Source: Massilicoli timonensis | GTDB taxonomy: Bacteria > Bacillota_I > Bacilli_A > Erysipelotrichales > Erysipelotrichaceae | Direction of reading: 5' to 3' | Length of the DNA stretch: 32,000 nucleotides | NCBI RefSeq assembly: GCF_900199515.1 | Contig: NZ_LT963433.1 | Coordinates: forward strand, 268,150-300,149 | Part shown: one piece after another, positions 8,357 to 22,594 of the stretch | How positions within the stretch are numbered: the stretch's first letter is position 1 | How the letters are laid out: every line of letters starts with the position of its first letter | Made by a program: the position numbers and the translations under genes | The notes under the pieces: model-generated | What the model was told of the DNA's origin: nothing | Seen by the model: the letters and a program-made list of their open reading frames with translations, nothing else | The model's database searches: none

Positions 8357-8428
8357 AAAAGATTCATTCCTTTAGATGAAATCGGTTTTCATGTGGTATA
8401 ATACATCGCATAAAGGTAGGTGTATATT

Positions 8429-10186
8429 ATGTACGATAAATGGAATCTCGATATTCTCTATAAGGGGTATGATGATCCCGCATTCCTAAATGACTGGAAA
8501 AAACTGGAACAGATCTTGGAGGAACTGAAACAGTTCGCGAAGGACTGTCAAAAGATGGAAGATCTGAAGATGCTGAAAGAAGCCGTAGCCGTGCTGGAAA
8601 ACTATCATTTGGTAGGTGAACGACTGGGTTCGTTTGTATCGCTGCGGCAGGCGACGGATACGACTGATGCGCAGACGGTATCTTTGATCGCGCGTTTCAG
8701 TAAGCTGGTTAGTCAAAGCGGTGAAGCGGAAGCGATGATCAACAAGCGCATTGCCGCCGTTTCAGATCTTGATGCGCTCATCAAGCAGGATGAAGTGTTA
8801 CAGGAATATGCATACTTATTCCATAACATCAAGGAAGAAAACCGCTATCTGTTAGATGATGCGGTAGAAGGCGTAATCGCAAAATTAAATTTAAGCGGAC
8901 CGAAAGGATGGGAGGATTTACAGCAGTATCTCACCAGTACATTGATCGTTGATTATAAAGGTTCAAATGAAACACTGTCCTCAATTCGCAACATGGCTTA
9001 CAGTGCAGATAAAGAAGTGCGTAAGTCAGCATATGAAGCAGAATTAAAGGCTTACGACAAGATCAAAGAGGCGATCGCCTTCTCTTTGAACAATCTAAAA
9101 TCTTACGTGAATACGATCGTGGAACTGCGTGGTTATGACAGTGCGCTGGATATGACGCTGAAGCAAGCACATATGAAACAGGAAACACTGGACGCCATGT
9201 TTGGAGCAATGAAGCGGTTTATGCCGAAATTCCATGCATACTATCGTCGGAAAGCAGAACTGCTCGGTTACCAAAACGGTCTGCCTTGGTATGAATTATT
9301 TGCGCCGATGGGAGAAAGCAGCCAAGTGTTTACACCGGAAAGCGCTCATCGTTATCTGCTGGATCATTTCAAGAATTTTGATATAGAATTGCATGATATG
9401 ATCGACCGCGCCTTCAAAGAGGAATGGATCGATTTCTTCCCGCGGAGCGGAAAAGTGGGCGGTGCATTCTGTGCGAATCTGACGGCGCAGAAAGTAAGCC
9501 GTGTCTTGACGAATTTCGACGGCGGCTTGGGAGATGTCGTTACTTTGGCGCATGAGCTCGGTCATGCGTTCCATGGGCAGCAGATCGAAAGTCATCGCCC
9601 CTTAAATACCGATTATTCGATGCCGGTTGCGGAAACAGCATCCACCTTCAATGAAAACATCATCATGAATGCGGCGATTGCGGAAACAAGCGATCCGCAG
9701 GAAAAAGCAGCGCTCATTGAAAATCAGCTGCAAGATCTGTCACAGATCATCTGCGACATCTATTCACGTTTCTTATTTGAGGATACGGTGTTCAATCGCT
9801 GTAAAAATGAATTCCTGTTCGCAAAGGATCTGGAGGAAATCATGCTGGAAGCGCAGAAGGAAGCTTATGGAAACGGCTTAGATCATGATGTGCTGCATCC
9901 TTATATGTGGATCTGTAAATCACACTACTATTCCGCACATTTAAGTTACTATAATTTCCCTTATGCCTTCGGTGGTTTGTTTGCACGTGGACTGATCGTA
10001 AAATATCAGCAGGAAGGGAAAGCCTTTGTTGAAAAGTACAAACAGTTACTGCATGCAACGACGGTTGCCGATGTCGAAGAAGTCGCAAAAATGGCTGATA
10101 TTGACTTAACCGATCAAGCGTTTTGGGAAAGCAGTTTACAAACTGCCAGCGATTTGATCGATCAGTATCTGGAACTCACAAAATAA
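8429..10186 (+). CDS. pepF: M3B-family oligoendopeptidase F
   Basis: About 585 aa. HELGHAFH zinc motif and PepF-like N- and C-terminal regions. ATG 8429 is preferred. An extended -10 TGgTATAAT lies at 8394-8402. Confidence 0.9.
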   Translation: MYDKWNLDILYKGYDDPAFLNDWKKLEQILEELKQFAKDCQKMEDLKMLKEAVAVLENYHLVGERLGSFVSLRQATDTTDAQTVSLIARFSKLVSQSGEAEAMINKRIAAVSDLDALIKQDEVLQEYAYLFHNIKEENRYLLDDAVEGVIAKLNLSGPKGWEDLQQYLTSTLIVDYKGSNETLSSIRNMAYSADKEVRKSAYEAELKAYDKIKEAIAFSLNNLKSYVNTIVELRGYDSALDMTLKQAHMKQETLDAMFGAMKRFMPKFHAYYRRKAELLGYQNGLPWYELFAPMGESSQVFTPESAHRYLLDHFKNFDIELHDMIDRAFKEEWIDFFPRSGKVGGAFCANLTAQKVSRVLTNFDGGLGDVVTLAHELGHAFHGQQIESHRPLNTDYSMPVAETASTFNENIIMNAAIAETSDPQEKAALIENQLQDLSQIICDIYSRFLFEDTVFNRCKNEFLFAKDLEEIMLEAQKEAYGNGLDHDVLHPYMWICKSHYYSAHLSYYNFPYAFGGLFARGLIVKYQQEGKAFVEKYKQLLHATTVADVEEVAKMADIDLTDQAFWESSLQTASDLIDQYLELTK

Positions 10187-12021: not shown

Positions 12022-12354
12022 TCACATAGTTAGACAATCTAAAAATCTTGTAAGCGCCTCGCTTTTTTCGATTTCGTTATAGATCGGAGCGGCTTTTTCA
12101 TATTGTGGCCGCAAATAGAGCGATTTGATCAATGCCGCATCTTTCTTAGGCATACATAGCAGGATGGCGTCAATGCGTGCGCACAGCTCTTGATTCAAAT
12201 AAGCAGCACCGCTTTCCGCAATCCTTTCTTCATCTGTTTCCTGTGCATGCTCTCGCTTATAAATATGAGCAAGCGTCGCCATGATCTGTTCTTTTTCACA
12301 CAGTGAAAGTAATTGGTGCATTGCCATCCCTCCCCCATTATACCAATACGTCAT
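12022..12354 (-). CDS. Hypothetical small protein (about 100-110 aa), function unknown
   Basis: The ORF has no family I recognise. ILLCMPKKDAALIKSLYLRP vaguely resembles the start of sigma-70 region 4, but no HTH follows. The start is uncertain: ATG 12354 has a weak RBS, while ATG 12327/12321 follows GGGGGAGGG. Confidence 0.5.
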   Translation of the reverse strand: MTYWYNGGGMAMHQLLSLCEKEQIMATLAHIYKREHAQETDEERIAESGAAYLNQELCARIDAILLCMPKKDAALIKSLYLRPQYEKAAPIYNEIEKSEALTRFLDCLTM

Positions 12355-12542: not shown

Positions 12543-13880
12543 ATGAATGATTTTATCACAGATTTATTTAATATTGATAGAAAAAAGATTAAAAAAATGA
12601 ATGTTGTTACTAGTAAGGATAAAACTGAGTTTCATATCGTCTTAAACCACGATGGTGATTTATTTTGTCCTTTTTGTTATGGTGTCGTTCATGCCAATGG
12701 CTATTCGAAACCTAAAATAATCAATCACCCTAAACTAACAGATAGAAAAGCGGTAATTATCTTTTATAACCATCGTTATCAATGCAACGAATGCTTGCGT
12801 ACTTTCTCTGGGAAAAATCCTTTCACTTTTTCTAACTTTAGAAATTCTTATCTTTCTTTTGAAAACATTATGAAGCAGCTTTCTAATTTGAATTATTCAT
12901 ATAAAATGGTAGCTGAGCTGAACCATATCTCTCCTACCCAAGTACAAAGATATTTTGATAGCTTCGTAAACATTCCTAGAATCACTCTACCTGAATCTAT
13001 AGGGATTGATGAGATTCATTCAAAAATGGCAAAACGAAAAGATTCTGCTTATTTATGTGTGATGGTGGATAATAAGAAACGTTCTCTTTTTGAAATACTT
13101 CCATCTCGTTCTAAAGCAGAATTAAAACGTTATTTTGAAAAGATTCCTCAAATAGAACGGAACAACGTAAAATATGTAACCATTGATATGTGGTTTCCTT
13201 ATAAAGAAGTAGCGAATAAGTATTTCCCTAACTGCATTGTAGCTGTTGATCCATTTCATGTTGTCGAACATTTAATGACTAGTTTCCGCCGTATACGTCT
13301 TAATATCATGTATCAGGTAGAATATGGCAGTGATAGTTACTATTTACTCAAAACATGGAAAGACTTAATTGAAAAGAATGTTTTTCTCGATAATGAACCA
13401 GTCTACAATAATCGCTTCAAAATGAAACTAAACAAAAGACAGCTACTTGATTTAATTCTTGAGATTAGTGAAACATTGGCTTTAGGATATCACCTAAAAG
13501 AGATGTATTTAACCTTTAATAAAAATGCAACGGAAGAAAATTGTGAGGAATGGTTCAATTCTATTTTAGAAGCTTTTAAAAAATCAGGAATATCAGAGTT
13601 CCATGATTTTATTCAAACACTTGAAAACTGGAAACCAGAAATTCTTAATTCATTCAAAAGACCTTTTGATGAGCACAAACTAAGCAATGCACTCTGTGAA
13701 AATATCAATGGGCAAATTAGAACATATTTATCTGTATCAAAAGGAGTATCTAATTTTATCCGTTTTAGAAAAAGATGTATTTTTGCTTTAAATCCAAAGG
13801 TTTTCTATTCAATTACAAATCAATTAAAATCTAATAAAGTTCAAGGCAAAAGAAGAGGCAAATATAATAAAAACAAATAA
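12543..13880 (+). CDS. ISL3-family DDE transposase
   Basis: 445 aa. N-terminal zinc-finger cysteines (CPFCYG...H, CNEC) and ISL3-like catalytic blocks GIDEIH, VTIDMW, VDPFHV and ENINGQIR. GAAGGAGG RBS. Confidence 0.9.
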   Translation: MNDFITDLFNIDRKKIKKMNVVTSKDKTEFHIVLNHDGDLFCPFCYGVVHANGYSKPKIINHPKLTDRKAVIIFYNHRYQCNECLRTFSGKNPFTFSNFRNSYLSFENIMKQLSNLNYSYKMVAELNHISPTQVQRYFDSFVNIPRITLPESIGIDEIHSKMAKRKDSAYLCVMVDNKKRSLFEILPSRSKAELKRYFEKIPQIERNNVKYVTIDMWFPYKEVANKYFPNCIVAVDPFHVVEHLMTSFRRIRLNIMYQVEYGSDSYYLLKTWKDLIEKNVFLDNEPVYNNRFKMKLNKRQLLDLILEISETLALGYHLKEMYLTFNKNATEENCEEWFNSILEAFKKSGISEFHDFIQTLENWKPEILNSFKRPFDEHKLSNALCENINGQIRTYLSVSKGVSNFIRFRKRCIFALNPKVFYSITNQLKSNKVQGKRRGKYNKNK

Positions 13881-14242: not shown

Positions 14243-15643
14243 TTATTTCTTCCTTAAGTGGCAGGCCACAAAGTGCTGCGGCTCGATTTCCATCCATTCC
14301 GGATTTTTCTCGCGGCAAATATCCATCGCATATTTACATCTCGTATGGAATTTACATCCTTTCGGCGGATTGACCGGACTTGGAATATCGCCTTCCAGAA
14401 TTTGCAGCTCCTTGTTATCGGCATCCGTTGTCGGAATCGCATTGAGCAATGCCTCCGTATAAGGATGCAGCGGATTCTTGAAAATATCCTCGGAACGTGC
14501 CGACTCTACCATATTGCCCAAATACATGACGCCGATACGATCGGAAATATATTTCACGACACTTAGGTCATGTGAAATGAACAGATAGGTCAGATTTTCT
14601 TTCTCTTTCAGTTCCTGAAGCAGGTTCAGGATCTGTGACTGAATGGAAACATCCAACGCCGATACCGCTTCATCACAAACGATGAATTTCGGGTTCAGCG
14701 CTAATGCACGCGCAATACCGATACGCTGACGCTGTCCACCGGAGAACTGGTGCGGATAACGGTGAATGAAATATTTTTCCAGACCGCACTTATCCATGAT
14801 CTCAATGATGTAGTCTTCCAGTTCCTGTGAACCCTTTTTGAACAGCTTATGTCCAACCAGCGGCTCACTGATCAGCTGTCCGACGGTCAAACGCGGATTC
14901 AAAGAAGAATACGGATCCTGGAAAATAATCTGAATATCCTGGCGCAGCAAACGCAACTCTTCTTTTTTCAGCATGCCCAGATCAATACCATGATCCCAAT
15001 ACTGCTCAGCTTTTAAGAAAGCATCGCTCTGTTCGCATTCTTTGCGCATTTCATCTAACTGCGCGCGGATTTCTTCCTGTTTCTTTACCGCCGCTTCATA
15101 AGCAGCGCGATTGGCACTGTCTTTTTCCAGCTTGGCTGCCTCTTCCACTACCTTACAGCCGGCATGGTATTCTTCTAACAAGAGCTTGCCGGCCTTTGCC
15201 AGATCCTTGGCATAGATCAAACCACCGGTCAGATGCACGATCTCATGGAAAACCCGATCCGCATCATCCGCTTTGAAATTGTGATGCGTTTCATCTTCCT
15301 TAACCGCTTTGGCTTTTTCTACCAGTGCATCCAATTTTTTCTTCTGCTCCGGCAAGTTTTTCAAAATTCGTTCTACATATGCCGGTTTATATTCATAAAT
15401 CGTTTTGCCATAGTAGATCGTATTTCCCTGTGTCTGTGGGTACAGCTGCAGCAGGACACGTCCCAGCGTTGATTTTCCACATCCCGATTCACCTACCAAA
15501 CCAAAGGTCTCACCGCGGTTGATATCGATCGTAATGCCGTCATTCGCCTTTACATAAAGCTGCTCCTTCTGCAAAAAGCTGCTCTTTTTTACCGGGAAAT
15601 ATTTTTTTAGGTTATGAATACTGATCAATTTTTCATTTTCCAT
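14243..15643 (-). CDS. oppF: Oligopeptide ABC transporter ATP-binding protein OppF-type, with an insertion of about 140 aa
   Basis: The start was moved to ATG 15643 (MENEKLISIHNLKKYF), which overlaps the oppD stop as TAATG and follows a GGGGGAAAC RBS. Walker A GESGCGKST, signature FSGGQRQR, Walker B FIVCDEAVSALD, and a C-terminal oligo_HPY-type Cys motif. At 466 aa it is longer than the usual roughly 320 aa. Confidence 0.9.
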   Translation of the reverse strand: MENEKLISIHNLKKYFPVKKSSFLQKEQLYVKANDGITIDINRGETFGLVGESGCGKSTLGRVLLQLYPQTQGNTIYYGKTIYEYKPAYVERILKNLPEQKKKLDALVEKAKAVKEDETHHNFKADDADRVFHEIVHLTGGLIYAKDLAKAGKLLLEEYHAGCKVVEEAAKLEKDSANRAAYEAAVKKQEEIRAQLDEMRKECEQSDAFLKAEQYWDHGIDLGMLKKEELRLLRQDIQIIFQDPYSSLNPRLTVGQLISEPLVGHKLFKKGSQELEDYIIEIMDKCGLEKYFIHRYPHQFSGGQRQRIGIARALALNPKFIVCDEAVSALDVSIQSQILNLLQELKEKENLTYLFISHDLSVVKYISDRIGVMYLGNMVESARSEDIFKNPLHPYTEALLNAIPTTDADNKELQILEGDIPSPVNPPKGCKFHTRCKYAMDICREKNPEWMEIEPQHFVACHLRKK

Positions 15644-16632
15644 TATTGTTTCCCCCTTTTCACTGGATGGAAGCATCGAATTGCATGACCCGGACTCACT
15701 TCTTTTAATTCCGGCTCATTTTCACGGCATTCCGCTGTCGCATACTTACAGCGCGGCGCGAATTTACAGCCTTTCGGCAGATTCAATGGATGTGGCACAG
15801 CGCCCGGAATGACCTCTAGCTTTGAACTGCGGTCGGTGTTCAACCGCGGGATCGAAGTCAGAAGGCCTTCAGTATAAGGATGAATATGCTCGCTATCCTG
15901 GAAGATCTTATCGACCGGTGCCGTTTCTACGACCTGTCCGCAATACATAACGGCTACATCATCTGCCATCTGGTTGATAACACCCAAATCATGTGTAATG
16001 AACATGATCGAAGTGCCCATTTCTCTTTTTAATTCATTCATCAGATACAAGATCTGTGCCTGAATGGTAACATCAAGCGCTGTTGTCGGCTCATCGGCAA
16101 TCAGCAGCTTCGGCTTGCAGGCAAGCGCCATCGCGATCATAACACGCTGACGCATACCGCCGGACAGCTGGAACGGATAAGACTTATTTACCTGTTCCGG
16201 ATTGGCGATCTTGACCGCTTTCAGCATTTCAATGCTATGCTGCTCTGCTTCCTTTTTGCTCATGCCCTGATGCAGCATCAGCACTTCCGAAATCTGACGA
16301 TTTACGGTAAAGATCGGATTCAGCGAAGTCATCGGTTCCTGGAAGATCATCGAAATATCGTTGCCACGTACCTTTGACATTTCTTTCGCATTGTAATTGG
16401 AAATCACTTTCCCTTGGAATTTGATTTCACCATCATAAATTTTCTGATTTTTTTCAAATAACTTCAAGATGCTCATCGCCGTTTGGCTCTTGCCGCTGCC
16501 GGACTCACCCACGACGCCAAGCGTATGTCCCTCTTCAATCGACAATGAAACTCCGTTTACTGCTTTGATCAGCCCGCGCTTCGTTTCAAAATACGTATGA
16601 AGGTTATTGATTTCTAGTAATTTTGCCATCAT
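15643..16632 (-). CDS. oppD: Oligopeptide ABC transporter ATP-binding protein OppD-type
   Basis: 329 aa. Walker A GESGSGKSQ, signature LSGGMRQR, Walker B LLIADEPTTALD, and C-terminal CKFAPRCKYATAEC. Confidence 0.93.
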   Translation of the reverse strand: MMAKLLEINNLHTYFETKRGLIKAVNGVSLSIEEGHTLGVVGESGSGKSQTAMSILKLFEKNQKIYDGEIKFQGKVISNYNAKEMSKVRGNDISMIFQEPMTSLNPIFTVNRQISEVLMLHQGMSKKEAEQHSIEMLKAVKIANPEQVNKSYPFQLSGGMRQRVMIAMALACKPKLLIADEPTTALDVTIQAQILYLMNELKREMGTSIMFITHDLGVINQMADDVAVMYCGQVVETAPVDKIFQDSEHIHPYTEGLLTSIPRLNTDRSSKLEVIPGAVPHPLNLPKGCKFAPRCKYATAECRENEPELKEVSPGHAIRCFHPVKRGKQ

Positions 16633-16638
16633 TCACAC

Positions 16639-18465
16639 CTACTTTTCATTTGATTTCGGGTCAATCGCATCACCCAGAGCATTACCGATCAAGTTAATGC
16701 TCAATGCGGCAATCAATACACAGACTGCCGGAAGGATCCACTGCCACCAGTAATTCTCGATCGTCGTTGCCTGCTGCGCCTTGTTCAGCATGTTGCCCCA
16801 TGAAGGATTAGGCGGCTGCACACCGAAGCCAAGGAAAGACAGCGCTGCTTCCTGTAACATCATGACCGCATAAGAGAGCGTCATATCAACCAATACCATG
16901 CTGATGACATTCGGCATGATATGGCGAATGATGATGGAACCTTCTTTGATTCCCATCGCTCTGGCAGCCAGTACGAAGTCCTTTTCACGTTCGATCAAGA
17001 TCTGCGCACGCACCAGACGCGCCAATCCCGGCCAGCTCAATAAACCGAGGATGATCATGATCAGATACATCTTAGATTGTGAATCCATGCTGCTGCCGAT
17101 CATGTAGGAAAGGGTAATGACCAGCGGCATAAACGGAATCGAAACGATGATTTCCGCAATACGCATCAACAGGTTGTCGATCCAACCGCCTTTGAAACCG
17201 GCAATCATTCCGACTGTCAAACCGATTGCCGATGAAATCAATACGGCAATCACACCGACTAGCAGCGTGATCTTACCGCCGTGCATCAAACGCGTCAATA
17301 CATCACGTCCCTGATCATCCGTACCTAAGATAAATCCTTCATTGCCCCACGCCGTCATTTCGCCGCTCTTGCTGATCGCGTAGCCCTGGAAGAAATCCAC
17401 AAAGATCTGTTCTGCTTCAAAATCTTCCGGAATATCTAAGATACTTTCGGCATCTTCGCCCCAGCCATAGATCTTGCCGCTTTCGCCAACTGCGAAGAAT
17501 GCGTTTTTGCCGGAATCGATCTGCACGATCTTTTCACCGAAATCAGGTACAGTGTCTAAATTAAAGGAAGTGCCGCCCCAAGCATAAACATTGCCTTCAT
17601 CATCTAAAGCCATCGCATTACGCTTGCCGGCCTTCACGGAAACGACTTTCACTTCGCCGTTTTCCAGTTCTTCCGGATAGTTCTTGAAATCTCCGCCGGA
17701 ACCGATAGCCCGTACCGTGTTATCATCCATCAATAAGATCATGCCCATGGCCGCCGCATCGGCATCCACGATATGTCCCTGATAATCATCCGGAATGATA
17801 TCCAGCTTCGTAGAGGTAACACTGCCCCAAGTATACAGATAGCCTTGATCGGTCAGCGCCGCCGAATATTCTTCATTTGCATAGACATGCACGACTTTCC
17901 CGCGCATCATGCCTTTGATCGAAACCGGCAGATTTTGCTGCTGCCAGTTCGCACGGCCCCAGCCGACGATAGAACCGCTGTTGGTAAGCGCCAGAATATG
18001 ACGATCCCCTACTGCGATCTCCTTGATGCCGGAATCTGCATTTGATGGAATTTCCAGCACATCATCCTGATCCTGCCCCCAGGCACACAGCTTCCCATCA
18101 TTTGTTAAAACGACCGAGAACGTAGCACCGGAAGCAAGCTGTTTGATATCCTCTGCCTTTACATCACAGGAACCATAATCCAAATATCCTCTCCCCGGCT
18201 GCACATTTTTCAGGATCGGCTCGGTATAAAGCGGATCCATCGGGAAAAACAGTGAACCGACAAAGGAGAACAGCAAAATGAAGATAAAGCCGATCAGACC
18301 GACCTTAGCCAAAGTATTGCTGAAGAAATTTTTAATGATCGTACGCATTGGCGACTGAATCGCTTCTTCCTCCAATACGTTGATTTCCTTTTTACCTGTA
18401 ACACTACTTCTAAACAATGATTTGAAAGAGCGTCCAAGTTTCGCGAAAAAACTTTCTTTTTTCAT
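16639..18465 (-). CDS. oppC: OppC-type ABC permease carrying an inserted seven-blade RCC1-like beta-propeller
   Basis: 608 aa. Basic N-terminus plus TM1 (res about 52-75), then seven repeats of about 40 aa of the type IKEIAVGDRHILALTNSGSIVGWG (res about 105-376). After these come the canonical OppC/DppC motif GTDDQGRDVLTRL and a BPD_transp_1 membrane domain containing EAALSFLGFGVQPP. Confidence 0.88.
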   Translation of the reverse strand: MKKESFFAKLGRSFKSLFRSSVTGKKEINVLEEEAIQSPMRTIIKNFFSNTLAKVGLIGFIFILLFSFVGSLFFPMDPLYTEPILKNVQPGRGYLDYGSCDVKAEDIKQLASGATFSVVLTNDGKLCAWGQDQDDVLEIPSNADSGIKEIAVGDRHILALTNSGSIVGWGRANWQQQNLPVSIKGMMRGKVVHVYANEEYSAALTDQGYLYTWGSVTSTKLDIIPDDYQGHIVDADAAAMGMILLMDDNTVRAIGSGGDFKNYPEELENGEVKVVSVKAGKRNAMALDDEGNVYAWGGTSFNLDTVPDFGEKIVQIDSGKNAFFAVGESGKIYGWGEDAESILDIPEDFEAEQIFVDFFQGYAISKSGEMTAWGNEGFILGTDDQGRDVLTRLMHGGKITLLVGVIAVLISSAIGLTVGMIAGFKGGWIDNLLMRIAEIIVSIPFMPLVITLSYMIGSSMDSQSKMYLIMIILGLLSWPGLARLVRAQILIEREKDFVLAARAMGIKEGSIIIRHIMPNVISMVLVDMTLSYAVMMLQEAALSFLGFGVQPPNPSWGNMLNKAQQATTIENYWWQWILPAVCVLIAALSINLIGNALGDAIDPKSNEK

Positions 18466-18482: not shown

Positions 18483-19439
18483 CTAATCAAGTTTAATACG
18501 CGGGTCGACCAGTGCATATGTCAAATCCGCAATAAAGTTGCTTATTAAGTAAACGACCGCGTAAAACATGTTCATTGCGATAACCAGATAGAAGTCGCGT
18601 CGATTTAACGCAGTCAAGAGCGTTGATCCCATACCATCCCAAACAAATACGGACTCGGTGATCATCGAACCGCCGAACAGCGTACCGATCTGTGCGATCA
18701 CGACCGTTACGATCGGAATCAAAGCGTTTCTAAACGCATGTGAATAAACGACGACTTTTTCGCTCAAACCTTTTGAACGTGCCGTACGGATATAATCTTG
18801 GCTCAGCGCATCAAGCATGGCATTGCGCACATAACGAACCGTACTTGCCAAAGAAGTGATCGTCAGCGTTATCACCGGCAACACCAAAAATCTTACCCAT
18901 TCGCCAAGTCCGCTGCCATCTACCGGCATACCGTTGCTTGGCAGCCAGCCTAAACGCAGAGCGAATACAAACACCAAACACAAACCGATAAAGAACGTCG
19001 GTACGCTCATACAAATCAAAGAAAAGACCTGCCAGAACTGATCGACAAAGGAATTTTTCTTGACCGCTGAGCGGATACCTGCCGTAATGGAAATCGTCAG
19101 TGAGAAAATTAACACAAAGAAATTCAAAATAACCGTGTTTTTCAGCGGATTGGCAATGACATTTTTCACATCGTCGTTTTTCCATGATGAAAAACCAAGT
19201 TCTCCTTGTGCGACATTGCCGATCCAAGCGACATACTGTTCGGGAAGTGATTTATCCAATCCCAACTGTTTTGTAATTTCTTCCCTTAACTGCGGGATCT
19301 GTTCCGGCTTGGCGGAAGTCGGAATCATCATTGAGACAGGATCTCCCGGCATAATTTTTGTTAAACTGAACAAAACGATCGAAATAGCAAAAATTACGGG
19401 GATCAATGATAGAATTCTCTTGATCGAGTATTTGATCAT
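18483..19439 (-). CDS. oppB: OppB-type ABC permease
   Basis: 318 aa. MIKYSIKRILSLIPVIFAISIVLF..., DPV, and the EAA loop region IRTARSKGLSEKVVVYSHAFRNALIP. Confidence 0.92.
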   Translation of the reverse strand: MIKYSIKRILSLIPVIFAISIVLFSLTKIMPGDPVSMMIPTSAKPEQIPQLREEITKQLGLDKSLPEQYVAWIGNVAQGELGFSSWKNDDVKNVIANPLKNTVILNFFVLIFSLTISITAGIRSAVKKNSFVDQFWQVFSLICMSVPTFFIGLCLVFVFALRLGWLPSNGMPVDGSGLGEWVRFLVLPVITLTITSLASTVRYVRNAMLDALSQDYIRTARSKGLSEKVVVYSHAFRNALIPIVTVVIAQIGTLFGGSMITESVFVWDGMGSTLLTALNRRDFYLVIAMNMFYAVVYLISNFIADLTYALVDPRIKLD

Positions 19440-19464: not shown

Positions 19465-19494
19465 AAAGCGGATAGGGTTATTGCTATCCGCTTT
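19465..19494 (-). terminator. Intra-operon hairpin between oppA and oppB (partial terminator/attenuator)
   Basis: An 11-bp stem AAAGCGGATAG (19465-19475) / CTATCCGCTTT (19484-19494). On the minus strand it is followed by UUCUUCUUAU. Hairpins at this position are commonly found after the SBP gene of opp operons. Confidence 0.55.
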
Positions 19495-19530: not shown

Positions 19531-21585
19531 TTATTCTTCCCAAGACAGATCGCATACGATTTCAGACCATGAAGCCATAGGACCTGTGTTGAATCCTTTC
19601 AGCTTAGCGTTATAGAAATCGAAATACTGGTTAGCGTACACTGGAATTACCGGCACGATCTCATTGAAGCGTTTCTGGAACTGGAACCATAATTCAGAAT
19701 ATTCGTCTTTCTGAGAAGGATCCAAAGAACGCATCTTCATCATCAGATCATCTAATACTTCATCTTCTGTGTTAGTCGCATTCAAAGAAGTACCTGAGAA
19801 GCCGGAATAGTATGAAGAATAGTAAGGGTCATATACCGGTGTGAATCCGGTTGCCATATTGAATGTGTGATATTTTCTCTGGCTATCCGGTTTTGCGGCA
19901 CCGTTGTAGTAGTTTTCAAGCAGACCCGCGAAGTCGGTACGTTCGATCGTGAACTTGATACCGGCTTTCGGACAGTTCTTCATCATAGAAGTTTCGATTG
20001 CATCGGTAACGGTATTGTCTTCAGTACCTAAGTGGTTGATCTGCAATACTTCGCCGTTTGCGTTGTGACGGAAGTAATCCGTTGCATTTTCCGCTTTAGA
20101 AGCGTCGAATGGCGTTACGCCGTCAGCCTCATATTTCCATTCAGTTGCATCTAATTCAGCATTTGCGTTAGCGATAGAGTAATCATAGTGATTCAGTTCT
20201 TCTTCAACACGTGCTTTATTTTCCTGATACATCCACTGTGCTACACCATAATCTGCGTATACAGTAGAACCATAGCCGCCTAATACGTTCTTGATTACTT
20301 CATCTTTTTCCAGAACATAGTTCAGCGCACGACGTACGGCAGGATCTTTTGTAGGACCGAAGTCGTTGTGGATCGGCATGTTGCCATAACCGTTACGATC
20401 GTAAGTCTGTTCTTTCAAAGAGTCGGTCGCACGTGCTTTTTCGATCTTTTCGCCTTCAACGACGCCTGTTAATACGTCTACTTCACCGGCGATCAACTGA
20501 TCCATATCCGTAGTCGCATTGACTGTTTTGATCAGAATGTTTTCGATTACCGGCTTATCGCCTTTGTAGTCGCCTTTGAAGTATTCGTTCAGCGTTAATT
20601 TTACCTGTTTGTTCTTGAAACTTACCAGTTTGTAAGGACCGGAAACAACATCCGGGTTTTTACGGTATCCGGATTTGATCTGCGGAGCGATTTCGCTCAG
20701 ATCCACGCCGACCAATTCACAACCTGCATCAGACGATACGATTTCCGCATCTTCGCCGGCTAAGTGTTTCATCGGTTTCGGATACAGCGCTACATAACTT
20801 TCTTCATAGAAGTACGGAAGCTGTGAAGCGTCGATCGTTAAAGAGAATGTGTAGTCGTCGATCTTCTTAACGCCCTGGAACACACCGTTCTTTCCTTCTG
20901 CTTCGGTCAATACCGGAATAAAGTTACCGTCCGCATCGACAGCCGGCAGGCCGTTTTCATCTTCCAGATAACCGGTAACCGGGATACGTTTACCGTTGCT
21001 ATCCAATTCGTATCCTTCGTCATCGTAAACGGTTCCGTTTTCCGCTTCGTTAGCCGCACGCAGATCCGGATCGGTTTCCTGTTTGTAGACGATGTTGTTG
21101 ATACCGCCTTCTTCTTCCGTTGCCAAACCTTTGTGATACTTTTCATAACCTAACAGCGCGTCACCTGTCGAATCGGCTGCCAACTGCGCTACCCATTCAT
21201 CGGAAGCGATCAGCAGCAGGTTGAAGATGAAATCATCCGCTGTCATGTCGGAACCATCAGACCATTTCAGATCTTCCGCAAGTTTGAAAGTATAAGTTTT
21301 GTTGCCTGCTTCATCTACTTCCGTAGACGGTTCTTCTTTCAGAATTGACTGATTCCAAACAAACGCCCCTTCTGCATCCGTGTCATACGTCGTATAGTAG
21401 TTGTGCAGTAAGTTTTTCACCTCAAGGTCGTAACTGGAGTTACCGAAACCTTCGATGAAATCACCGTTCATTTCCTGCGACGCTACTCGTAACGTACCGC
21501 TCTCTTCACCGCTGTCGCCGGAGCCGCATCCTACTAAGGAAAGCCCCATAACGCCAACAGCAAATAGTGTTAAAAGTTTTTTCAT
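19531..21585 (-). CDS. oppA: Family-5 (OppA/DppA-type) substrate-binding lipoprotein, oversized
   Basis: The start was moved to ATG 21585 with an AGGAGG RBS. Signal peptide and lipobox MKKLLTLFAVGVMGLSLVGC-GSG. SBP_bac_5-like body of about 684 aa. Confidence 0.88.
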   Translation of the reverse strand: MKKLLTLFAVGVMGLSLVGCGSGDSGEESGTLRVASQEMNGDFIEGFGNSSYDLEVKNLLHNYYTTYDTDAEGAFVWNQSILKEEPSTEVDEAGNKTYTFKLAEDLKWSDGSDMTADDFIFNLLLIASDEWVAQLAADSTGDALLGYEKYHKGLATEEEGGINNIVYKQETDPDLRAANEAENGTVYDDEGYELDSNGKRIPVTGYLEDENGLPAVDADGNFIPVLTEAEGKNGVFQGVKKIDDYTFSLTIDASQLPYFYEESYVALYPKPMKHLAGEDAEIVSSDAGCELVGVDLSEIAPQIKSGYRKNPDVVSGPYKLVSFKNKQVKLTLNEYFKGDYKGDKPVIENILIKTVNATTDMDQLIAGEVDVLTGVVEGEKIEKARATDSLKEQTYDRNGYGNMPIHNDFGPTKDPAVRRALNYVLEKDEVIKNVLGGYGSTVYADYGVAQWMYQENKARVEEELNHYDYSIANANAELDATEWKYEADGVTPFDASKAENATDYFRHNANGEVLQINHLGTEDNTVTDAIETSMMKNCPKAGIKFTIERTDFAGLLENYYNGAAKPDSQRKYHTFNMATGFTPVYDPYYSSYYSGFSGTSLNATNTEDEVLDDLMMKMRSLDPSQKDEYSELWFQFQKRFNEIVPVIPVYANQYFDFYNAKLKGFNTGPMASWSEIVCDLSWEE

Positions 21586-21623
21586 CTGCTTACCTCCTAT
21601 CAATCTGTATTGATAATACCTGT

Positions 21624-21652
21624 ATTATACATGATGGTTTTCAGTTTTTCAA
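21624..21652 (-). promoter_or_regulatory. Sigma-A type promoter of the opp operon
   Basis: Minus strand: TTGAAA (21652-21647), an exactly 17-nt spacer, then TATAAT (21629-21624), about 38 nt upstream of the oppA ATG. Confidence 0.7.
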
Positions 21653-22210: not shown

Positions 22211-22594
22211 CTACTTGCCTTGGTATTTCTTTTTGACGAATGGATTTAGCAGCGTCATGAGCAGATCGTTGCCGACCAGGATCATGCAAAGCCCGCTGTC
22301 CTTAAATGCCAGCACCAGATAACAAAGCGATGTTCCATAAGCATACACCTTATAGCGTTTCCATAGATCCGCATAACGCTCCGCCTTGATCGCCTGCATG
22401 ATCTGCCGCATATCCACCAGATAAAGCTGCATCACATCTAAATAAAGCAGCAGCGTCCAAAAGCCAAAAGGATTGCGGTCGTATAAGAAAAGCAGGATCG
22501 GCAGCGCCAGCAGTTCTAATATTGACATAAATTCGATTGTCGAGATCCGCCATTTATTTTTCATGTTCTTCATTTGCGCCCTGCGCATAGCCAA
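22211..22594 (-). CDS. Hypothetical multi-pass membrane protein (about 120 aa)
   Basis: Three to four hydrophobic segments (ILELLALPILLFLY, FGFWTLLLYLDVMQLYLV, SLCYLVLAF, LCMILVGNDLLMTLL). No recognisable family. Start ambiguous (TTG 22594, ATG 22588/22573/22564). The only strong RBS (GAAAGGAGG) is about 19 nt upstream of the TTG. Confidence 0.5.
   Translation of the reverse strand: MAMRRAQMKNMKNKWRISTIEFMSILELLALPILLFLYDRNPFGFWTLLLYLDVMQLYLVDMRQIMQAIKAERYADLWKRYKVYAYGTSLCYLVLAFKDSGLCMILVGNDLLMTLLNPFVKKKYQGK

Follow-up and report, generated by a model that had tools for sequence, protein, structure and literature searches.

A predicted BLIP-II/RCC1-type beta-propeller in the first extracytoplasmic loop of an OppC-type ABC permease from Massilicoli timonensis

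Type I ATP-binding cassette (ABC) importers are pictured as a minimal membrane core visited by a binding protein that is either soluble or lipid anchored. The canonical OppC and DppC permeases (Escherichia coli OppC, 8z21_B, and DppC, 8z1v_B; Mycobacterium tuberculosis OppC, 8j5q_C; Staphylococcus aureus Opp4C, NF045476) are ~280 to 300 amino acids long and have in common an OppC_N first transmembrane helix (TM1), a GTDxxGRD motif, six transmembrane (TM) helices, and an EAA loop, with ~25 to 30 residues between TM1 and the GTD motif. The systems to which they belong share an oppABCDF operon and four-Cys motifs at the C termini of both ATPases. Here, we describe a 32,000-nucleotide stretch of the genome of Massilicoli timonensis, a member of the Erysipelotrichaceae (contig NZ_LT963433.1, positions 268,150 to 300,149; the window), in which an oppC-like gene encodes a 608-residue permease subunit. 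Its core is homologous to the canonical proteins (36% to 40% identity), but 305 residues, including a whole beta-propeller, lie between TM1 and the GTD motif.

The MalF P2 loop is regarded as a peculiarity of the maltose system. In E. coli MalFGK2, it is an immunoglobulin (Ig)-like periplasmic domain that binds MalE all through the transport cycle with a micromolar dissociation constant (PMC6906923). Like the insert described here, MalF P2 is a folded accessory domain inside a periplasmic loop of a type I importer membrane subunit; it differs in being ~185 residues long and Ig-like, in lying between TM3 and TM4 of MalF, and in belonging to a sugar system, and it has no homology to the propeller. 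Its function has been demonstrated, whereas we infer the counterpart for the OppC propeller. In OpuA and GlnPQ, which are also type I importers, binding domains are fused to the membrane subunit. The MalE-MalF fusion of Bdellovibrio bacteriovorus likewise joins a binding domain to a membrane subunit (PMC6906923). In such importers, the fused domain is the solute-binding protein (SBP) itself, whereas here the fused domain is a propeller and a separate oppA gene is always present.

For the propeller itself, the closest solved relative is BLIP-II of Streptomyces exfoliatus (1jtd_B and 3qhy_B), which has the same seven three-stranded blades of ~40 residues and the same WG-x-N-x-x-GQ-x-x-VP repeat. 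However, BLIP-II is secreted as a free protein and its binding partners are class A beta-lactamases, and at ~26% identity the OppC propeller can be likened to it by sequence and fold only. The eukaryotic RCC1-like domains (RCC1, UVR8, and the RCC1-like domains of HERC2) are seven-bladed interaction surfaces of the RCC1 superfamily, as the OppC propeller may be, but they have four-stranded blades of 50 to 60 residues, an unrelated membrane context, and weaker fold matches to the OppC propeller, with a template-modelling score (TM-score) of about 0.5 to 0.6. An RCC1-like propeller can serve as the ectodomain of a membrane protein, as CR4 shows. The plant CR4 receptor kinases carry an extracellular "crinkly" RCC1-like propeller (PMC4617170).

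The Pfam families on the OppC-propeller proteins are already listed by automated domain annotation, and the architecture is visible in databases yet unstudied. The original prediction, made from the sequence of the window, knew of no characterized importer in which the membrane subunit itself bears an extracellular interaction domain. This held for the propeller in OppC, since full-text literature searching found no description of such an insertion at the TM1-TM2 loop, but not for the wider class, in which MalF P2 (PMC6906923) and the SBP-domain fusions are precedents.

We conclude with very high confidence that the protein is the OppC-type membrane subunit of a binding-protein-dependent importer that is encoded by five genes and belongs to the peptide/nickel family, and that the short turn between TM1 and GTDxxGRD has been replaced by a seven-bladed propeller of the BLIP-II/RCC1 type on the outer face. 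The open reading frame (ORF; 16639 to 18465, minus strand) is uninterrupted, and its product is 100% identical to the NCBI protein named "ABC transporter permease subunit" of M. timonensis, which is on record in identical form for 268 contigs. Pfam OppC_N (PF12911) was matched at residues 38 to 83 (3.3e-08) and BPD_transp_1 (PF00528) at residues 415 to 604 (8.3e-33). The insert matched RCC1_2 in four stretches (1.1e-31; 108.2 bits versus a cut-off of 22) and RCC1 with 27.4 bits versus a threshold of 21.7. In a search of solved structures, the permease core (residues 374 to 605) matched E. coli DppC/OppC at 1.2e-46, and Foldseek with the membrane part of the structural model returned DppC/OppC chains, including 8z21_B and 8j5q_C. 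The nearest NCBIfam model for the core was Opp4C (4.5e-92), at 308.3 bits versus a cut-off of 350, and none of the NCBIfam equivalog cut-offs (Opp4C, OppC, DppC, NikC, and others) was attained by the protein. These matches place it in the OppC/DppC permease family, yet make it the equivalog of no named transporter. The proposed insertion between TM1 and GTDxxGRD of an OppC-type permease was therefore borne out by Pfam, NCBIfam, and the solved structures, all four Pfam families expected from it (OppC_N, RCC1_2, RCC1, and BPD_transp_1) being present on the 608-residue protein. The distance of about 270 residues given for the segment between TM1 and the GTD motif needs correction: from the end of TM1 to the motif (GTDDQGRD, residues 381 to 388, with G381 as the first residue) there are 305 residues, and 270 is the size of the propeller.

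The AlphaFold2 model of the whole protein, based on an alignment of 28 homologues, had a mean predicted local distance difference test score (pLDDT) of 80.7 and a predicted TM-score (pTM) of 0.74. In the loop, it contained seven predicted blades of three strands each with pLDDT values of 85 to 95. The top Foldseek match was BLIP-II 1jtd_B (E value, 1.8e-19; TM-score, 0.80, normalized to the 273-residue target), and the alignments to BLIP-II extended over the whole chains of 268 to 273 residues (251 to 295 columns; TM-scores, 0.78 to 0.80). BLIP-II was also found by phmmer searches of the PDB, at 7e-22 with the insert alone and at 3e-20 with the whole protein (residues ~105 to 375); HERC2, UVR8, and RCC1 ranked after it for the insert. 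The blades are predicted to be of the short three-stranded BLIP-II type, unlike the 50- to 60-residue eukaryotic RCC1 type. This bacterial kind of blade would explain why the eukaryote-tuned whole-domain model PF25390, which matched at 3.7e-31 with 109.2 bits, stayed under its gathering score of 150 bits.

The insert is thus predicted to form a closed seven-bladed propeller. A complete seven-blade RCC1-like propeller had been claimed from the letters of the window, and Pfam, AlphaFold2, and Foldseek all agreed with it: seven blades were modelled, BLIP-II was matched over its whole chain, and each of the seven quoted blade strings was located, positions 17338 to 18153 corresponding to residues 105 to 376. 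The propeller comprises about 270 to 285 residues (30 kDa) in blades of ~40 residues. Its six inter-blade linkers read LEIP, NLP, LDIIP, NYP, LDTVP, and LDIP, so that the LxIP pattern proposed for them is only approximate. Because the blades are only ~26% identical to one another, the propeller is old and differentiated rather than the product of recent amplification. The nearest propellers outside OppC (31% to 35% identity) are found in proteins of 1500 to 7000 residues with many RCC1_2 repeats. Giant RCC1_2 proteins of this kind (P0122, P0127, P0128, P0155, P0158, and P0205) also contain Big_5, He_PIG, PKD, cadherin-like, and InlB-type Ig domains and, judged by domain content, look like typical surface proteins.

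Hydropathy analysis identified six TM segments (residues 53 to 75, 397 to 420, 433 to 455, 466 to 483, 519 to 538, and 574 to 598), which are also helices in the model, and the protein is predicted to have six TM helices with both termini in the cytoplasm. The N-terminal 52 residues carry a net charge of +5, and the loop, with 22 Lys and Arg versus 48 Asp and Glu residues, has a net charge of -26. Since the EAA coupling loop, which joins TM4 to TM5, has to be on the cytoplasmic side, the TM1-TM2 loop should lie outside. The cryo-electron microscopy structures of E. coli DppBCDF show periplasmic TM1-TM2 regions in both DppB and DppC; the two subunits are capped by DppA, and it is DppB that supplies the scoop motif entering DppA (PMC12136057). 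The charge bias, the EAA loop, and the solved DppC/OppC structures, including the periplasmic TM1-TM2 region of DppC (PMC12136057), predict a propeller outside the membrane, in agreement with the orientation claimed in the original prediction.

In alignments, the propeller takes the place of a turn some nine residues long that joins the native post-TM1 segment to the "H-LLGTD" segment. At the C-terminal end of the propeller, the last blade strand (AWG) is followed after just two residues by the native "GFxLGTD" sequence. Among the 28 homologues, down to 46% identity, this junction is free of indels and W373, G374, G377, G381, D383, and the GRD residues are invariant; its spacing is also unchanged in the divergent variants P0129 and P0147. 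On the N-terminal side, linker residue P90 is invariant and G91 is at least 90% conserved in the same 28 homologues, and the frequency of P90 is 1.0 in a set of 87 sequences. G153 and D154 of blade 2 are likewise invariant in the 28 homologues, with frequencies of 1.0 for G153 and 0.98 for H156 in the 87 sequences. Because the junction is of zero length and invariant and the N-terminal linker is conserved and confidently modelled, the propeller appears to be mounted rigidly on OppC with no flexible tether.

The architecture is widespread. The best 120 database homologues were uniform in length (~600 to 630 residues) and in domain set, down to 45% identity, and a search of 1.84 billion representatives yielded ~40 clusters at 50% identity with a propeller in OppC, down to ~32% identity. 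A degenerate DNA pattern that encodes the junction, WG-x-x-G-[FY]-x-x-G-[ST]-D-x-x-GRD, matched the genomes of at least 120 species. In 119 of the 120 matches listed, the ORF contained five to seven WG motifs upstream of the junction (where the ORF was not cut by a block edge), and the uncut ORFs among the matches listed had 236 to 238 residues downstream of it (up to 244 in locus L065). The distance from TM1 to the junction was 288 to 359 residues in 86 complete genes and always corresponded to one propeller. Conservation of the junction in this pattern-found set is given by construction; the independent evidence for it comes from the 28 homologues found by protein search and from the divergent variants. 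The order oppA-oppB-oppC-oppD-oppF was kept in all 119 propeller-bearing loci among the 120 that were read.

These data also bear on whether the gene is an artefact, such as a chimeric assembly, a fused pseudogene, or a chance repeat. Certain database relatives are clearly chimeric (P0200 and P0262, in which Radical_SAM or ThiW is joined to a permease core), but the frame of the M. timonensis gene is intact, the identical protein recurs on 268 contigs, the propeller model is of high confidence, and matching architecture and operon structure occur in at least 119 species genomes. The probability of an artefact is therefore negligible, and this explanation was dismissed.

Carriers among the Bacillota include Erysipelotrichaceae, Lachnospiraceae (Roseburia, Hungatella effluvii, and Anaeromicropila herbilytica), Oscillospiraceae, Christensenellales, Tissierellia, and Anaerococcus. 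Others are found in the Mollicutes (Peloplasma and Izemoplasmatales), Spirochaetota (Sphaerochaeta and Treponema), and Chloroflexota (a metagenome-assembled genome of the Anaerolineaceae). Erysipelothrix inopinata, H. effluvii, A. herbilytica, Anaerococcus vaginalis, and Peloplasma aerotolerans are among the cultured carriers. The envelopes of the carriers thus include those of monoderm Bacillota, wall-less Mollicutes, and diderm Spirochaetota. The functions suggested in the original prediction were capture of a ligand or of the cell wall, SBP tethering, and sensing. Anchoring to or capture of the cell wall was dropped as a general role, because the protein is carried by wall-less Mollicutes and by Spirochaetota, in which it would be confined to the periplasm.

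The TM1-TM2 loop of this permease family looks like a hot spot for ectodomain insertion, because single and double propellers, an interrupted propeller, and an unrelated domain all occur there. P0147 (876 residues) has about two propellers in the loop. In P0129 (1142 residues; locus L122, 1011 to 4439), the propeller is broken by non-RCC1 segments and ~220-residue coiled-coil segments, and P0263 (551 residues) has an unrelated non-RCC1 domain of ~200 residues at the same site. The loop of P0174 contains about two RCC1 repeats only. Relatives of ordinary length with ~51% core identity, e.g., P0218, also exist.

As to function, the reading that we prefer, though tentatively and with a probability of roughly 0.4, is that the propeller docks the OppA of its own operon in a manner analogous to MalF P2. 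Held rigidly atop OppC, beside the landing site of the lipoprotein OppA, the propeller would be a protein-protein docking platform by which OppA could be recruited or oriented during the transport cycle, as MalE is by the MalF P2 loop. Alternating-access import would be unaltered and the propeller would be an add-on, because the permease core, like OppB and OppD, looks conventional. The fixed geometry, the conserved operon, and the absence of another recurrent partner gene were counted in favor of this reading: when 218 flanking ORFs from 120 loci were clustered, no recurrent neighbor gene was found, and only sporadic PepF-like and TldD-like peptidases were seen. Because the carriers span monoderm, wall-less, and diderm envelopes, the only universal partners would be the components of the transporter itself and its substrate. 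The mean pairwise identity of the propeller is 0.37 versus 0.61 for the core, and the propeller is always retained; fast evolution of a surface that is nevertheless kept is as expected if it contacts a cognate partner that itself evolves fast. Residual distance covariation between the propeller and OppA (partial Mantel r, 0.24; p, 0.004) was higher than that between the propeller and OppB (partial Mantel r, 0.12; p, 0.09).

Several observations weigh against docking of OppA. The conserved positions of the propeller all belong to the structural RCC1 signature (G, W, P, H, and Q), with no shared polar patch among them. Covariation of the propeller with OppA is no larger than that with its own core (0.24) and is below that between OppA and OppB (0.53). 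A family-wide feature of OppA matching the propeller was sought and none was found. The OppA of the window has an acidic insertion of ~80 residues (residues ~160 to 240; D/E/G/N rich; 20884 to 21126, minus strand), but in 29 other operons of the propeller type OppA lacks this insertion (occupancy, 0 to 0.3), which is therefore lineage specific. The length of OppA and that of the loop are only weakly correlated (rho, 0.38; p, 0.04; n = 30), with confounding by phylogeny, and both this correlation and the acidic insertion were discarded as docking evidence. In E. coli, the SBP-engaging scoop motif is in DppB and not in DppC (PMC12136057). Finally, the variants with about two propellers or with coiled-coil or other inserts hint at other partners, and the closest propellers occur in giant Ig-rich surface proteins.

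The last two observations would fit a propeller that captures a partner other than OppA, such as a (poly)peptide substrate, a peptidase, or an enzyme of the penicillin-binding protein/beta-lactamase fold, so that products are released where OppA collects them. We regard this as rather unlikely. It is consistent with the tight protein binding of BLIP-II, with the occurrence of the most similar non-OppC propellers in Ig-rich proteins of 1500 to 7000 residues that appear to be of a surface-binding type, with the loop variants that have about two propellers or added domains, with a fast-evolving propeller surface that has no family-wide patch, and with the PepF-like and TldD-like peptidase genes near a few operons. 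However, no conserved partner gene adjoins the operon, the periplasmic location in Spirochaetota and the wall-less Mollicutes argue against a wall polymer or an outside macromolecule as the universal ligand, and a rigid zero-length junction would be unnecessary for a simple tethered module.

The restriction of family-wide conservation to fold-determining residues could also indicate a passive or structural role, in which the propeller would be a spacer, a shield of the periplasmic gate, a stabilizer, an assembly aid, or an oligomerization domain with no specific ligand. Uniform length, rigid attachment, and the fact that unrelated domains fit the same loop (the ~200-residue non-RCC1 insert of P0263) are in line with such a role. 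We nevertheless consider it unlikely, as the retention of an intact 30-kDa domain across at least four phyla and in ~40 clusters (50% identity) points to selection beyond bulk, and the studied propellers of this type (BLIP-II, RCC1, UVR8, and HERC2) are all interaction scaffolds.

The oppC gene is third in a tight operon with the gene order oppA-oppB-oppC-oppD-oppF (Table 1). The OppF of the window has a K/E/A-rich insertion of ~130 residues (14990 to 15382, minus strand) between the strand that follows Walker A and the Q-loop. The model of the insertion consists of four long helices (pLDDT, 90 to 97), and no Pfam or PDB counterpart was found in searches that used the whole protein only. In the family, the insertion is 130 to 200 residues long and has a conserved core with invariant G140 and Y159 and near-invariant G141. 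A long OppF is encoded in 44 of 55 propeller-type operons, and OppF is of ordinary length in the other 11. DppC specifically pairs with DppF in E. coli (PMC12136057), and because OppF would by analogy pair with OppC, both accessory domains would belong to one half-transporter.

This arrangement raises the further possibility that the propeller is regulatory or sensory and that a bound ligand or protein acts via the OppC-OppF half to modulate ATPase activity or transport, which we judge very unlikely. The E. coli DppC-DppF pairing, which would place the propeller and the OppF insertion in one half, the long OppF of 44 of the 55 operons, the confidently modelled four-helix insertion, and the reported signaling of substrate availability to MalK by MalF P2 (PMC6906923) speak for it. 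However, the 11 operons with ordinary-length OppF indicate that the two features are separable, the operon has no linked signaling domain or regulator, and the idea is purely correlative. A related idea, that the propeller is a built-in receptor with BLIP-II-style tight binding of a separate extracytoplasmic protein, e.g., a peptidase or an enzyme of the penicillin-binding protein/beta-lactamase fold, and either channels the products of that enzyme into the importer or gates transport via the OppC-OppF half with its four-helix OppF insertion, is quite unlikely.

The best PDB match of OppA was OppA 9p48_A (1.3e-37). The C termini of OppD and OppF retain the four-Cys motif C-x6-C-x7-C-x18-C, and the four cysteines of OppF are invariant in 22 homologues. 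In E. coli DppD and DppF, four cysteines coordinate a [4Fe-4S] cluster (PMC12136057), and by sequence the motif in the window resembles those sites. The 91-nucleotide gap between oppA and oppB contains a hairpin with an 11-bp stem and a poor T-tail (19465 to 19494, minus strand), which could be an attenuator or an mRNA stabilizer yielding surplus binding protein. Tandem oppA-like genes lie upstream of oppB in L023, L080, and L053 (739 and 762 residues in Anaerococcus locus L080), which suggests that several binding proteins share one translocator.

The genes flanking the operon are of a housekeeping type and encode a PepF-like peptidase, phosphotransferase system enzyme I, an ISL3 transposase, an ABC-F protein, and an amidase. 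The ISL3-family transposase gene (12543 to 13880, plus strand; PF01610, 3.8e-44) is directly downstream of oppF in a patch with 30% to 36% GC versus ~46% in the surroundings and is probably a recent insertion. The gene for the PepF-like M3 oligoendopeptidase (8420 to 10186, plus strand) is ~4 kb away. Three unrelated loci also have PepF-like genes beside the operon (L019, 5685 to 7431, 49% identity; L017, 1118 to 3116; and L091), and two have TldD/PmbA-like genes there. Together with the name of the closest solved SBP, OppA, the PepF-like and TldD-like neighbors hint faintly at peptides as the substrate. Two small ORFs without a Pfam match also flank the operon region (22211 to 22594, minus strand, 127 residues; 12022 to 12354, minus strand, 110 residues); the 127-residue ORF, between the ABC-F gene and oppA, resembles a small membrane protein.

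Table 1. Features of the propeller-bearing oppC-like gene and its operon, with positions in the 32,000-nucleotide window
Feature	Residues	Positions	Strand	Basis
oppC-like gene, 608 aa: TM1, propeller, five-TM permease core		16639..18465	-	ORF, Pfam, protein database match
Predicted cytoplasmic N-terminal segment	1-52	18310..18465	-	10 K+R vs 5 D+E; low pLDDT except one short helix
TM1 (OppC_N)	53-75	18241..18309	-	Hydropathy; PF12911; modelled helix 51-73
Native post-TM1 periplasmic linker (predicted)	76-104	18154..18240	-	Invariant P90; pLDDT 83-87
Predicted seven-blade BLIP-II/RCC1-type beta-propeller	105-376	17338..18153	-	Model, Foldseek, RCC1_2, phmmer
Blade 1 core	107-130	18076..18147	-	Modelled strands 107-112, 116-121, 126-130
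Blade 2 core (GDRH motif)	147-170	17956..18027	-	String located, model
Blade 3 core	191-214	17824..17895	-	String located, model
Blade 4 core; terminal AIG in place of WG	232-255	17701..17772	-	String located, model
Blade 5 core	274-297	17575..17646	-	String located, model
Blade 6 core	313-336	17458..17529	-	String located, model
Blade 7 core	354-374	17344..17406	-	String located, model
Zero-length junction WGNEGFILGTDDQGRD, final blade strand to native GTDxxGRD segment	373-388	17302..17349	-	Invariant residues
Permease core (TM2-TM6, EAA coupling loop) and stop codon	377-608	16639..17337	-	DppC/OppC, Opp4C, Foldseek matches
Promoter-like site 5' of oppA, TTGAAA-17-TATAAT, 11/12		21624..21652	-	Consensus match only
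oppA-like family-5 solute-binding lipoprotein, 690-aa ORF, lipobox LVGC; first operon gene		19531..21603	-	PF00496, 1.5e-42
oppB-like permease, 318 aa, ordinary length		18483..19439	-	PF00528, PF19300
oppD-like ATPase, 329 aa		15643..16632	-	ABC_tran, oligo_HPY
oppF-like ATPase, 477-aa ORF (466-aa form on record, P0271), helical insertion		14243..15676	-	Split ABC_tran, oligo_HPY

The OppC propeller is present in well over 100 species of anaerobes from gut and sediment, which shows that large ectodomains are a recurrent design among importer membrane subunits. If the propeller docks OppA, the picture of binding-protein recruitment would have to be revised for an entire Opp subfamily; if its ligand is something other than OppA, peptide import would be coupled to another extracytoplasmic partner. 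Should the propeller prove to be a receptor, these transporters would form a new class of partner-coupled or ligand-gated ABC importers. The operon also provides a defined physiological context for an uncharacterized bacterial propeller of the RCC1/BLIP-II type.

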